A DNA stretch of 16,117 bases from a virus (taxonomy: Duplodnaviria; Heunggongvirae; Uroviricota; Caudoviricetes), in IMG/VR virus record IMGVR_UViG_2778261278_000003, positions 1 through 16,117 of that record; one strand, given 5' to 3'. Position numbers: made by a program. The first letter of the stretch is position 1, and the number at the start of each line of letters is the position of its first letter. Shown here piece by piece: positions 3,001 through 9,000 of the stretch.

Positions 3001-6000
3001 AAACGTATGCAAAGCCATGCACCTTATCGATGCATGGCTTTTTTCAGTAAAAACGGGCGGATTTTCGGGGAATTTTACACTGACTGACGTGATGCCAGTT
3101 GCGCACTTTTACGCGAAAAAATCATGTTCTGCGCAGGGGTGAATTTTTCACGGCTGTCATCCACCGAAGCCACGTCAGGCCTGAATCCGATGGTCGTTAA
3201 AATGTCGCTATCCTGTGCGGAATAATTAATTTTTTCACCCTTCGCAAGCCAGGACAGAAGGGCTTCACGCAGGGCATCTGTGGCACGCTGAATGGCACAG
3301 TTTCGGGCAATGACCGTCAGCTCACTGTAGCCCATCAGCTCCGGTGCCAGTGCCGCCGCCAGTGCTGTGCCGTGCTGCTGCATAAAATCATTCAGCCGGT
3401 CGCGGATGCTGATGTGCTGAACGGCTTCATGCGAACGAATATAACGACCGGCGGCCTGATTCACCTGCCATTTTCTGACTTCGATAATATTGCGTAATTC
3501 GTCCAGGCGACTGACGTTTCTGCCTTCTCCTGACAGAAGCCGCAGGTATTCCTGTTCGGCCGCTGCCAGCTCATTTTTGCGTTGCAGCCATGCTGCTTTG
3601 TTATTCTGACAGGTGTCAAAGGCCTGCTGTAAGGCTGTGCTTTCCATCGTTATCTCTTTCTCATCATGCTGAAGAATAAAAATACGGTGTGCGGCGACGG
3701 CCGGTGTTAACCGACAGCCCTCATTCCAGACGCAGCGAATATGATTGTGTTTTTAACCGTACTGGCGGCAGTTCCTGTTTTTCATGCAGGCTTTCTGCCA
3801 GTTCGTCCGGTGTGACCGGGCGGACAATGAAACGGTTGATGGTCTGAAGCGTTTTAAACACCAGACCACAGCCCGGATCCGTGCACACATAAAAACGCTC
3901 GGTGACTTCCTGAGACAGACGCCGCGATGTTCTTGACAGTGCAAGGCCTTTACATCTCCGACAACAATATCCGGTAACAAGCATTCTTTTCGGGCGTTTC
4001 ATACTGCCGGAGGCTGACGTCAGTGAATCGCGATATCTCTGTTTGCCTGAAATGTATTCCATTCCTGAATCTTTACAGTCAGAGAAAAAGCTTTCACTCG
4101 CTTCAAATGTCGCAGAGCAATAAATATTCCGGCACTGTGCAATCATTATCTTGGTGCCATCGTCCATGAAATGTGCGCGACGGGTGTGAGCAACATGTCC
4201 ACACGACGGGCAGTAAATCATGACAGCAGTCCTCTGGCCTTAAGCTCTGCTCCCTGCTGGTCTATTTTGTCCTGCCACACCTTGCGCTGTGCCGGTGTGC
4301 CTGCCACCTCATAATCCATGTGCGGGAGTGTTGCCGCTGACAGTCCGGTCAGCCGGAGAACCGGCTCACCGGTGAGGCTGATTTGCATCTGTTTTATTTT
4401 CTGTTCCAGCGATGATTTCACCTGCTGCATGACAGCTTTATCGGGTGCGACGTAGCCCTGATGGCCGGTGGTGTTGGCGAGCAGATTTTCCTGTACCAGG
4501 ATACTCAGATGCATTGCCCGGACAAGCGCCTCACAGGTTTCATTCAGGGCGTGTTCCAGCTCATGCTCTGCATACAGACTCAGAAGGTGATGATGTGCCT
4601 TCCGGTAGGCGGTGGCCGTGCTGTCACACGCCCCTTTCAGGCGTTCACGTTCGAAATTCAGCACCACGGCCAGATTGTCATATTCCTGTACCAGCTCCCG
4701 GCGTGCCACGCGCTCAATGTGGCGCTGTTTCAGCTCGTCGCTCAGGACACCACCGGCTGCACGAAAGGCCGTGCGCCAGTCGTCAGCGTCGTTTCCGTCG
4801 GCCTGCGCCAGCGCATTTTTTTCCTGCTCTGCCCGTTCAATGGCCGTGACGGTCTCATCCATCAGGCGGGCGTTCTCAAGGTGGGCGGCTCTGGCCTTTT
4901 CCAGTTGTGCCAGTGCGGGTTGCAGATATTCAGGGATGGTGTTGTCAGACATTTTCCGGCTCCTCGTCACTTCAGGTTAAGAAAATTGTGACGTACACCG
5001 GACAACAACACGACGCATTGCAGATGTGCCAGCCCTGACACAGGAAACTCATCCTCAGACCGGCAAGCCAGGAAAAGGTCGCAGGAAAAACCGGCTTACT
5101 GTTTGTTTTTTTATATTTTACTGTTCACCTCTGTTCACCATAAGAAAAAAGATAAGTAATACAGTAAGTTAAAGGGTGAACAATCGCAGTAATGACTGTT
5201 CACCGTCTGTTCACCACTGTTCACCCGTTGATGGGCTTTTTGTGCTGTTTACTACTGTTTGTTTTTATTAATTCGCCGGGAATGAATAAGAAAAAACGAT
5301 TTGTATTTCACTATAAAAATTACGAATTGCTTTAAGTGGCTTTAAATGACTTTAAGTGGAGATGAACAAAAAACACACAAGCATTGTAAGGCTGCCGGAA
5401 CAAATCCCCCCTGTTGCGTCTGCTGAAAATATTCACAAAATAAAGCGCTACCCGAAGCCGGACGGACTTATCCGGTGCTGTATGGACATTAACGAGGTAG
5501 CCCGATGCAAGCTGTTTTTTCTTCCCCGTCTCCCGCCCCTGTGACACCACTGATGCCGCTGCCGGACATCACGCAGGAGCGTTTTTTACGTCTGCCGGAA
5601 GTGATGCACCTGTGCGGCCTGTCACGCTCGACCATCTATGAACTCATCCGTAAGGGGGAATTTCCGCCGCAGGTGAGTCTTGGCGGTAAAAATGTGGCCT
5701 GGCTGCACTCTGAAGTCACCGCATGGATGGCCGGGCGCATCGCCGGACGCAAACGGGGGTACGACGCATGATGATGCCCGCTCTGCAAAAACTCCCTTTT
5801 TCTGGCTTGCCTTTTTCCGGCATTTGCGGATATAGTTTTTCCGCTGTCGCAAAATCGGCAGCCGGGCGTGGAAACCCGTGTAACTCGAAGGCGACATATG
5901 ACGCGCCATGCGTCTTTTTTTGTGTCGCAATCAACGCCACAGAGCGCCAGATTATGGTGTGGTGTGTGGTCAGTCGTGCAGATGGCATTCCGTGCATCCT

Positions 6001-9000
6001 GCCCGCGTCCGCTCATTATGCCGCAGAGTCAATGGTAGCTCAGGCGGGGCAGCCTCCGGGCTGGCCGGTATTCTTCGAGGCCGGTATTTCCACCCCCGTC
6101 TGGGCTATCGCCATTGAGCGTGGAAACTCCGGCGATAGCAGTTATTTGCTACTCGAAGGAGGCTGCCTTATGGCTACAACCCTTACCCCCTCACACCCTG
6201 AATTTGTCTTTGTGTTTGCGGCTGTCCGTCGCGCAGACCGTCATCCCCGTATCTGCATGCTTCGCACCGTCGCCGGTGATGAACGCAGCGCCCGCCGTTC
6301 CCTTGTCCGTGACTATGTGCTCTCCCTTGCTGCCCGTCTGCCGGTGGTGGAGGTGTCCCGTGCGTAATAAAAAAGCCCCTCAGACCGTCTCAGCGCGTCA
6401 TGACGCCCGTGAACACCTCAGCATTGAGGCTTACCATAAGCTCAACCGCGCCAGCGCCGTATCCCAGTTTGTTGGGGGTGATTTGATTCACCGTGAACTC
6501 TCCGGCCTGCATCAGCTCTACATTCCGCATATTTTCAGCTACCTGAATGAAGATATTGATTTTGTGCTGAATGAGCTGAAAGCCAAAGGCCTGTGCCGCG
6601 ATTTTCTCGCCCAGCAGAAAGACCGGGGAGACAGGACGCATGTTTGATTTTCCCCAGCCCGGTGAGATTTACCGTTCTGCCGGTTTTCCCGATGTGGCCG
6701 TGGTCGGCATTCTGGAAGACGGTATTCCGTGGGAAATGCCGTACCGCTGCCCGGACATTGTCTGGAACCCGTACCGCCGTAAATTCAGTATCCTTGTGCG
6801 TATCCTCGCTGACGGGCGCACCACAGACATCCCGCTGGGGCGTTTTCTGCGGGAATTTACCTGTGACCGTCCTGACCTGTTTAAACGCAGCCCCGTAAAC
6901 CGGCATGCGGTACTGAAAGAAATGGCCGGAGACCCGGAATTACAGAAATGGCGGGAGAAATATCTGGATATTTACCCGCAGGCCCCTGTTCCGGTCAGCC
7001 GGGCGACACCGGTGGCGCGGGAATGGCGGGAAATCCCCCGCACGGAGCCTGACCCGGAAATCACACCGGATAACAGTTACCGCAATTATCTGTAATTAAA
7101 AAACGACACCCGAAAAATTAAATGTGCGTATTCGCGCAGGGATACGCACGTCTTCAGGAGACGCAGATATGCCTTATCAGTTAATGCAACCGGCACGGAA
7201 TGCAGTCATCTGTCACAGGGCGGAAAGCAAATGAAAACACCCTTACCGCCCGTCTTACGCGCAGCCCTTTACCGTCGTGCTGTCGCCTGTGCCTGGCTGA
7301 CCGTGTGCGAACGTCAGCACCGCTACCCGCATCTCACCCTTGAATCACTGGAGGCGGCCATCGCCGCTGAGCTGGAAGGCTTTTATCTGCGCCAGCACGG
7401 TGAGGAAAAAGGGCGTCAGATAGCCTGTGCCCTGCTGGAAGATTTAATGGAATCCGGCCCCCTGAAGGCCGCGCCGTCGCTGTCCTTTCTCGGGCTGGTT
7501 GTGATGGATGAACTCTGTGCCCGTCACATAAAAGCGCCGGTACTGCACTGAAGGAGAACAACACCATGAAAATGAACGTAACCGCCACCGTCAGCCATGC
7601 GCTCGGCCACTGGCCGCGTATTCTCCCGGCGCTGGGGATTCAGGTGCTGAAAAACCGTCATCAGCCCTGTCCGGTCTGTGGCGGGAGTGACCGCTTCCGT
7701 TTTGATGACAGGGAGGGGCGCGGCACCTGGTACTGCAATCAGTGTGGTGCCGGTGACGGCCTGAAACTGGTTGAAAAGGTGTTTGGTGTTTCCCCGTCCG
7801 ATGCGGCCGCAAAGGTGGCTGCCGTGACCGGCAGCCTGCCCCCGGCTGACCCGGCAGTGACGGCTGCCGCCGGTGCTGAAACAGACGCTGCCCGGAAGAA
7901 CGCCGCCGCACTGGCACAAACCCTGATGGCGAAAACCCGTCCCGGAACCGGTAACGCCTACCTGACCCGCAAGGGCTTTCCTGGCCGGGAATGCCGGATG
8001 CTGACCGGCACACACAGAGCCGGTGGCGTGAGCTGGCGTGCCGGTGACCTTGTGGTGCCACTGTATGACGACAGCGGCGAACTGGTTAACCTTCAGTTAA
8101 TCAGTGCTGACGGCCGTAAGCGCACCCTGAAAGGCGGACAGGTCAGGGGCACCTGTCACACCCTTGAAGGACAGAATCAGGCCGGAAAACGTCTGTGGAT
8201 AGCGGAGGGATACGCGACCGCACTTACCGTGCATCACCTGACCGGTGAAACGGTGATGGTGGCGCTTTCTTCCGTGAATCTCCTTTCTCTGGCCAGCCTT
8301 GCCCGGCAGAAGCATCCGGCCTGTCAGATTGTCCTTGCTGCTGACCGTGACCTCAGCGGTGACGGCCAGAAAAAGGCCGCCGCAGCCGCAGATGCGTGTG
8401 AAGGTGTTGTTGCCCTGCCGCCGGTCTTCGGTGACTGGAATGATGCCTTCACGCAGTACGGCGGGGAAGCCACCCGTAAGGCCATTTATGATGCCATCCG
8501 GCCACCGGCTGAAAGCCCGTTCGACACCATGAGCGAAGCGGAGTTTTCCGCCATGAGTACCAGCGAAAAGGCCATGCGTATCTATGAGCATTACGGCGAG
8601 GCGCTCGCGGTCGATGCCAACGGCCAGCTTCTGTCCCGCTATGAAAATGGTGTCTGGAAGGTGCTGCCGCCACAGGACTTTGCCCGGGATGTGGCCGGGC
8701 TGTTTCAGCGTCTGCGCGCGCCGTTCTCCTCCGGGAAGGTGGCCTCCGTGGTGGACACCCTGAAGCTGATTATTCCGCAGCAGGAAGCCCCATCCCGCCG
8801 CCTGATTGGCTTTCGTAACGGCGTGCTCGACACGCAGAACGGCACGTTCCACCCGCACAGTCCGTCACACTGGATGCGCACCCTGTGCGATGTGGATTTC
8901 ACCCCGCCGGTGGACGGTGAAACGCTGGAGACCCACGCCCCCGCGTTCTGGCGCTGGCTTGACCGTGCCGCCGGTGGCCGTGCGGAAAAACGCGACGTGA

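Follow-up and report, generated by a model that had tools for sequence, protein, structure and literature searches.

A P4-type RNA immunity region in a satellite prophage and a conserved alternative pairing at the predicted 3' end of its CI RNA

The DNA analysed here is a 16,117-nt stretch from a virus of the Caudoviricetes (IMG/VR record IMGVR_UViG_2778261278_000003, positions 1 to 16,117), referred to throughout as the window, to which all coordinates refer unless another record is named. Positions 2911-10253 align with 11624-4291 of phage P4, from psu to alpha and crr, at 98% nucleotide identity, and the identity over 5700-6400 is 95.6%. Judged by this alignment, the element is a P4-type prophage with an integrase and cargo genes unlike those of P4. 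The P4 immunity system is present in conserved order, comprising ORF88, the promoter PLE, seqA, cI, seqC, kil within eta, epsilon and alpha. Read 5' to 3', PLE is followed by an isrK-like seqA RNA with its terminator, the CI RNA, the seqC target and the kil ribosome-binding site, all of them within the eta open reading frame (ORF). The features of the region are listed below, with target sites named after those of phage P1, "a" being the first site of each target and "b" the site adjoining the ribosome-binding site.

5505-5771, + strand: ORF88, an AlpA/Vis-type regulator (Pfam Phage_AlpA, 7e-21; matches P4 ORF88)
5768-6367, + strand: eta, 199 amino acids, with ATG codons at 5768, 5771 and 5774; encloses the leader and CI RNAs and ends as kil
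5807-5836, + strand: promoter PLE, with -35 TTGCCT (5807-5812), an 18-nt spacer and -10 TATAGT (5831-5836)
5843-5920, + strand: isrK-like leader RNA (P4 seqA), with hairpin 1 (5843-5862), hairpin 2 (5863-5878) and then a terminator hairpin
5868-5874 and 6120-6126, + strand: predicted target sites a1 and a2, GUGGAAA here and GUGAGAA in P4
5884-5891 and 6152-6159, + strand: predicted target sites b1 and b2, CUCGAAGG here and UUCACAGG in P4
5900-5921, + strand: intrinsic terminator of the leader RNA, a stem (5900-5914) followed by T7 (5915-5921); part of the isrK model
6028-6115, + strand: CI immunity RNA (Rfam C4 family), with closing stem 6033-6049:6094-6110 and two hairpins
6073-6079, + strand: CI hairpin-2 loop b', CUUCGAG here and CUGUGAA in P4
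6087-6093, + strand: unpaired CI segment a', UUUCCAC here and UUCUCAC in P4
6104-6112 with 6131-6139, + strand: alternative hairpin B:C, with inner stem 6116-6118 with 6127-6129 and a2 in an 8-nt loop
6136-6140 (UAGCA) with 6147-6151 (UGCUA), + strand: competing downstream pairing for segment C, central to a hairpin at 6127-6161 (RNAfold)
6152-6162, + strand: b2 and the kil Shine-Dalgarno sequence AGGAGG, which overlap; a2 and b2 together form seqC
6170-6367, + strand: kil, 65 amino acids, Icd-like, the first translated gene after PLE; identical to P4 Kil

PLE is the sole sigma-70-like site returned by a promoter scan of 5400-6700; its sequence is the same as in P4 and its -10 element falls on the 'consensus -10 sequence' of P4 record X02534. 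The early-promoter candidate of an initial annotation of this DNA, made from the sequence alone, is this promoter. To follow conservation, we assembled 49 related loci from Enterobacterales genomes, of which 45 are distinct in the alignment used (A2). The paired isrK-like and C4 RNAs are present in all full-length loci of this set, and the P4 genome itself returns both Rfam matches. The leader RNA matches isrK (RF01394) over its full length with 71.3 bits against a threshold of 50, and its three hairpins are 95.4% paired in 36 relatives, with seven pairs in which both sides have changed. Membership of the isrK/seqA family is indicated by this score, by the three hairpins, the last of them an intrinsic terminator, and by C4 target sites both within hairpin 2 and beyond it. 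A terminator scan of 5400-6700 called only 5900-5921, where a hairpin and T7 run had been noticed previously; the scan and the isrK model both identify it as the leader RNA terminator, its stem is 99.4% paired, and a G-C pair is swapped to C-G in 10 of the 36 relatives. It probably corresponds to the terminator t1 of P4. A 46-codon ORF at 5898-6038, pointed out in the same leader, does exist but was rejected as a gene, its ATG being absent in 38 of 50 loci, its stop position varying from 0 to 46 codons and its frame differing from that of eta.

The eta gene is identified by the ORF list, the Pfam domain Phage_ASH, a PGAP coding sequence of 600 nt and conservation in the 49 loci; its start overlaps the stop codon of ORF88. 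PGAP labels the ORF enclosing kil as 'host cell division inhibitor Icd-like protein', and the Kil product (6170-6367) is a 100% match to P4 Kil (P4 8365-8171), with the Shine-Dalgarno sequence AGGAGG at 6157-6162 and the ATG at 6170. The eta and kil genes of P4 have been described previously (PMC10111431).

The CI RNA matches Rfam C4 (RF01695) on the + strand with 76.7 bits against a threshold of 45, over model positions 1-87 of 87. Within its closing stem lie hairpin 1 (6050-6063) and hairpin 2 (6064-6085), and a CCA stands at 6111-6113 on the 3' side. All 27 pairs of this fold are 100% paired in the 45 relatives, with 10 pairs changed on both sides, including the conserved closing stem 6033-6049:6094-6110, which has 17 bp and resembles a tRNA acceptor stem. 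Assignment to the C4 family is consistent with the full-model score, the covarying closing stem with its two hairpins, and two exposed segments matching four target sites. By analogy with the annotated c4 RNA of P1, the mature CI RNA is predicted to span about 6034-6112.

The initial annotation had singled out three segments, A (TCAATGGTAGC, 6029-6039), B (GCTATCGCCATTGA, 6104-6117) and C (GGCGATAGC, 6131-6139), whose strings and coordinates are correct by sequence check, C being the exact reverse complement of 6104-6112. The A:B pairing is the closing stem of CI. RNAfold of 6028-6117 (-52.2 kcal/mol) gives 7 bp (6029-6035:6111-6117), a 3-nt bulge and 14 bp around two small hairpins, reproducing the proposed helix of roughly 21 bp. 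We rejected its outer extension of 7 bp as a conserved feature: it is specific to the P4 clade and only 69% paired in relatives, the conserved register being that of the 17-bp stem.

When the window and P4 are aligned, nearly all substitutions in the segment fall in six short, mutually compensating patches. On the basis of these three-way compensating differences, and of the match between CI and its own targets in 44 of the 45 relatives, we assign the specificity bases of seqB to the hairpin-2 loop (6073-6079) and the unpaired 6087-6093, and the targets of CI to 5868-5891 (seqA, in the isrK-like RNA) and 6120-6159 (seqC, reaching the kil Shine-Dalgarno sequence). In the 44 matching loci the matches of the two CI segments to the four sites of the same locus are 7 nt and 8-10 nt long, as against about 4 nt for unrelated pairs. 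Site a1 is displayed in the loop of leader hairpin 2 (5863-5878), and b2 shows 9 nt of complementarity to the CI hairpin-2 loop, the GGA of the kil Shine-Dalgarno sequence among them. The tentative equation of A, B and C with seqA, seqB and seqC in the initial annotation therefore fails, as A:B closes the CI RNA and the specificity bases and targets lie elsewhere: alignment with P4 bears out the region as the P4 immunity region but places its seq elements at coordinates other than A, B and C. Published coordinates for seqA, seqB, seqC, t1, t4 and timm of P4 were not found in the literature searched, which gave secondary mentions only.

The predicted duplex of CI with seqC in trans (6080-6093 with 6120-6133) extends past a2, over a 2-nt mismatch, into CCGGC (6129-6133), whose partner in this duplex is the 3' arm of CI hairpin 2. 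Binding of CI would therefore be expected to invade not only the inner stem but also segment C, over its first 3 nt.

The cognate CI-target duplexes are predicted at -23.4 and -29.7 kcal/mol, as against -10.9 and -16.0 kcal/mol with P4 targets, so that cross-pairing with P4 is predicted to be 13-14 kcal/mol weaker. Because both CI determinants and all four target sites differ in a compensating manner, the window copy is predicted to be immune to itself and heteroimmune, or not fully immune, to P4. Across the 45 loci we counted seven versions of the first specificity module and 16 loop sequences of the second in 24 combinations, a distribution suggesting that the two modules recombine freely among P4-like loci. 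One locus (L004) carries the first module of the window together with the second module of P4. Another, from Mangrovibacter yixingensis (L038, 41-325), is a natural mosaic in which a1 and b1 (GTAGGAA and CTCAATGG) are unlike its own C4 segments (TTTCCAC and CCGTTAGA) and the downstream a2 and b2 do match them, which amounts to a natural 'seqA-mismatched' immunity region.

In P4 the isrK-like element is seqA and the C4 RNA is the CI RNA, and pairing of CI with seqA and seqC leads to premature termination (PMC3632133, PMC10111431, PMC4825925). By analogy with published P4 and P1 work, the transcript from PLE would carry in turn the leader RNA with a1, b1 and a weak terminator, the CI RNA, and then the second copy of the target, a2/b2. 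The CI RNA would be cut from this same transcript, RNase P generating its 5' end, and would act in trans on later transcripts. Pairing of its UUUCCAC segment and hairpin-2 loop CUUCGAG with a1 and b1 would promote termination at the leader terminator, and pairing with a2 and b2 would block translation of kil, whereupon the untranslated RNA would be terminated ahead of the replication genes epsilon and alpha, leaving the element a quiescent prophage. Transcription arriving from farther upstream would escape this block, ribosomes translating eta presumably traversing the region and overriding it. The initial annotation had proposed immunity of the P4 type and named the right family, this being P4's own region, but the mechanism that it envisaged, a terminator in cis, appears to be wrong; on the P4 and P1 precedent, immunity is exerted in trans by processed CI on nascent transcripts and not by an A/B/C attenuator in cis. 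We put the probability that the locus is the immunity leader of a P4-type satellite prophage and that it works mainly by this trans mechanism, taken together, at about 0.9.

The region shares with that of P4 its gene content and order, 96-98% nucleotide identity, Kil, the promoter, the leader terminator and the CI scaffold, and differs from it in both CI determinants, all four target sites, the integrase and the cargo genes. The immI regions of P1 and P7 are too diverged for BLAST alignment but have an Rfam C4 RNA and two-site targets up- and downstream, in the order a1, b1, c4, a2, b2, icd in the P1 record, with the second downstream site at the ribosome-binding site of an Icd-like gene and an alternative helix of the B:C type enclosing a2. 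Unlike the window, where the replication genes are the output, P1 controls the antirepressor Ant and lacks an overlapping eta-like ORF. The linear plasmid prophages N15, phiKO2 and PY54 possess an isrK-like RNA with terminator, a C4 RNA, B:C at 9 of 9 pairs with inner stem and 8-nt a2 loop, and icd; they are temperate phages rather than satellites, and the controlled operon is that of the antirepressors (antA/antB). In the Salmonella prophage Gifsy-1, a homologue of the leader RNA is accompanied by a processed RNA of C4-like type (IsrK and STnc1160, in isrK-orf45-anrP). Alternative conformers of its long transcript have been shown experimentally, with an exchange in cis between the middle of IsrK and the C4-like part (structures A and B), and IsrK activates translation in trans (PMC4825925). 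We considered this exchange as an earlier description of B:C and rejected it, since it is a different one and B:C is not described there.

Two further loci with Icd/Kil-like proteins, from Providencia phage PSTCR3 (L058) and Pasteurella phage Pmp8 (L059), have no Rfam C4 or isrK match at threshold nearby, their regulator being either too diverged to detect or a different one, and they were left out of the comparison. In P4-like loci of Brenneria and Lonsdalea, EFASI RNA (RF02957) was detected with 114 and 91 bits about 1.3 kb downstream of C4 (L049 2965-3095 and L051 2962-3084, respectively).

B cannot pair with C while the lower 7 bp of the closing stem of CI are formed. Folded alone, B:C is predicted at -18.6 kcal/mol, and a perfect 9-bp inverted repeat with a loop of 3-40 nt is expected by chance about 0.07 times per 364-nt region. 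The pairing is 98.5% maintained in the 45 loci, four of its nine pairs having changed on both sides, as against at most 57% in slid registers, and the inner stem (6116-6118:6127-6129) is 100% paired, with two of three pairs changed on both sides. RNAalifold, given no structure, picks B:C over the lower closing stem. For a wider comparison, viral C4 loci were gathered with a pattern fixing bases of the C4 core only and no base of B or C. Of 81 distinct viral loci whose closing stem is intact, 51 reach 9/9 in their best B:C pairing, 22 reach 8/9 and eight reach 7/9, at nearly fixed spacing. Aligned with MAFFT, 122 distinct sequences of the P4-like and N15-like kinds show 96.6% pairing at B:C (slid registers at most 52%), and the hairpin has Watson-Crick compensation at five positions. 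Pair 6105:6138 is CG in 70 sequences, UA in 33 and UG in 18; 6106:6137 is CG in 63, UA in 48 and UG in 11; 6108:6135 is CG in 103 and UA in 16; and 6110:6133 is AU in 104 and GC in 16. Where C has become U at 6105 in B, the partner in A stays G, the wobble being tolerated, and the partner in C becomes A, a pattern suggesting that selection maintains pairing in B:C no less well than in the lower CI stem. On the opposite strand, about 60 G-U cells would read as A-C mismatches, and this strand-specific wobble points to + strand RNA as the selected molecule. Beyond P4-like loci, N15, phiKO2, PY54 and phages related to them have all nine pairs, an inner stem of AGAG/CUCU and an 8-nt loop that holds a2, and P1 has eight of nine pairs with a2 in the loop, in a region that is non-coding.

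These comparisons indicate that the alternative pairing of B with A or C, proposed in the initial annotation as mutually exclusive, is real and under selection. With the A:B closing stem 100% paired, B:C 96.6-98.5% paired and compensatory changes in both, the covariation supports B:C as well as it does the accepted CI fold.

The predicted mature CI ends with 6104-6112 of B, a 9-nt stretch that takes in the CC of the 3' CCA, and B:C would therefore occupy the stem base and tail recognised by RNase P. The a2 loop of B:C, CGUGGAAA, is the same as the loop displaying a1 in leader hairpin 2. With the CI stem closed, segment C can instead pair downstream in the hairpin at 6127-6161, in which CUCC is predicted to pair with GGAG of the kil Shine-Dalgarno sequence; for the fragment downstream of CI, the mean predicted pairing of the Shine-Dalgarno bases is 0.86, compared with 0.60 in shuffled controls, and is above the control in all 45 loci. 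In the window, the two local conformers differ very little in energy (-54.0 and -53.8 kcal/mol). In one state, the CI stem would be closed, the RNA competent for processing, segment C paired downstream and the kil Shine-Dalgarno sequence buried; in the other, B:C would form, a2 would be shown, and CI maturation would be delayed until the 3' trailer is removed. Trimming by PNPase or RNase II is reportedly needed for efficient 5' maturation of CI, with which this scheme would agree. We rate such a two-state role of B:C in the unprocessed transcript at slightly under even odds.

RNAalifold also pairs the displaced A strand (6034-6039) with GCUGCC at 6162-6167, between the kil Shine-Dalgarno sequence and AUG. 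This pairing is kept in 45 of 45 loci by one-sided, wobble-compatible changes only, and is weakly indicated.

Several points weigh against the mechanism set out above and the two states of B:C within it. In the full leader, the closed CI stem with the downstream hairpin is favoured over B:C by a median of +7.4 kcal/mol, the difference being +3.0 kcal/mol in the window and -1.4 kcal/mol in P4, and in transcripts ending at C the median pairing probability is 0.94 for A:B and 0.03 for B:C. Neither the folding energies nor the pairing probabilities support B:C as the thermodynamic ground state. As A:B is transcribed first and is usually favoured, B:C would need strand displacement, ribosomes or CI binding to form. 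Site a2 is predicted to be unpaired in the closed-stem conformer too, so B:C is not strictly required for access to it. Several of the compensating changes are common to whole clades, and the independent events are fewer than the cell counts suggest. The link of B:C to RNase P and 3' trimming is tentative, and what is said here of processing, termination and immunity derives from published work on P4 and P1.

The same pairing could serve presentation only, displaying a2 in a closed 8-nt loop for fast recognition by CI with no effect on processing. The parallel with a1 speaks for this, the CGUGGAAA loop having CGGG/CCCG as its closing pairs in the leader RNA and GAG/CUC together with B:C downstream, as does covariation of the inner stem (GAG/CUC, GAA/UUC, AAG/CUU, AGAG/CUCU); in P1, moreover, a2 begins 3 nt after the end of c4, so that only the 3' end of c4 can supply the 5' arm. 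A role in presentation alone is nevertheless somewhat unlikely, given that a2 should be accessible with the CI stem closed as well and that the stricter Watson-Crick pairing in B:C than in the lower A:B stem would go unexplained.

The attenuator in cis envisaged in the initial annotation, in which B pairs either with A, giving a structured RNA and read-through, or with C, giving a hairpin whose U-rich tail terminates transcription before kil, fares less well and is in our view improbable. The hairpin itself is conserved and covarying, and the 9 nt after C hold five T both in the window (tail AGTTATTTG) and in P4; but the U-tract is not conserved, as 92 of the 122 sequences have at most three T in these 9 nt and only 12 have five. 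B:C has an 18-nt loop and goes uncalled in the terminator scan; A:B, which forms earlier, is predicted to equal or exceed it in stability; and immunity specificity maps to bases other than A, B and C. We rejected B:C as a conserved intrinsic terminator or attenuator on the grounds of its loop, the missing scan call and the absence of the U-tract in most relatives, and assign a low probability to B:C with UUAUUU acting as a terminator in the P4 clade alone. In P4, a Rho-independent terminator of unusual structure (t4), which could coincide with B:C, reportedly lies between cI and the Rho-dependent timm. That the complementarity is a by-product of eta coding constraint or of kinship between the A and C repeats and never forms as RNA is very improbable and was ruled out as a coding or DNA-level cause: B:C does lie inside the conserved eta ORF and A and C are alike, but each side of the compensating changes is non-synonymous (AIA to ATT, GD to GG), P1 retains the pairing in a non-coding region, the slid-register controls fall to 52% or less, and the wobble pattern is specific to the + strand.

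Outside the immunity region, the window departs from P4 at both ends. The integrase region (1-1194) has no nucleotide match to P4 int. Between it and psu lie two overlapping ORFs on the - strand (1227-1919 and 1886-2785, 229 and 298 amino acids), neither with a Pfam or PADLOC match, in the position where P4 carries gop/beta/cII and which is presumably the variable cargo/defence hotspot of P4-like satellites. P4 homology ends at 10253, after crr repeats at 9953-10072 and 10134-10258, beyond which are encoded an AIDA-type autotransporter adhesin (10927-13962, - strand) and a DUF5508 protein (14746-15489, - strand). No tRNA gene is found in the window, and this absence, together with flanks unlike those of P4, suggests that the integration site differs from that of P4.

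Overall, the region is a rediscovery, from raw sequence, of a classic immunity system made of RNA only, and represents no new kind of biology. The differences at six sites and the 24 module combinations provide a ready natural table of immunity types for P4-like satellites. The immunity system itself is already known, and the conserved B:C exchange is the sole part that may be undescribed; we found no description of it in the open-access literature, which does not include the original P4 immunity papers. If undescribed, B:C would offer a testable structural explanation linking production of the immunity RNA to what happens in the remainder of the transcript. More broadly, the 3' end of C4/CI-type RNAs could be a conserved two-partner segment in P4-like satellites, N15-like phages and P1, which either closes the RNase P-competent stem or forms the hairpin displaying a2, a generalisation that we advance tentatively and at distinctly less than even odds. 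If true, the exchange would account structurally for the reported need for 3'-to-5' exonucleases in CI maturation, and would tie the way in which the immunity RNA matures to what becomes of the transcript's 3' portion, be it termination, 3' trimming or kil/icd translation.

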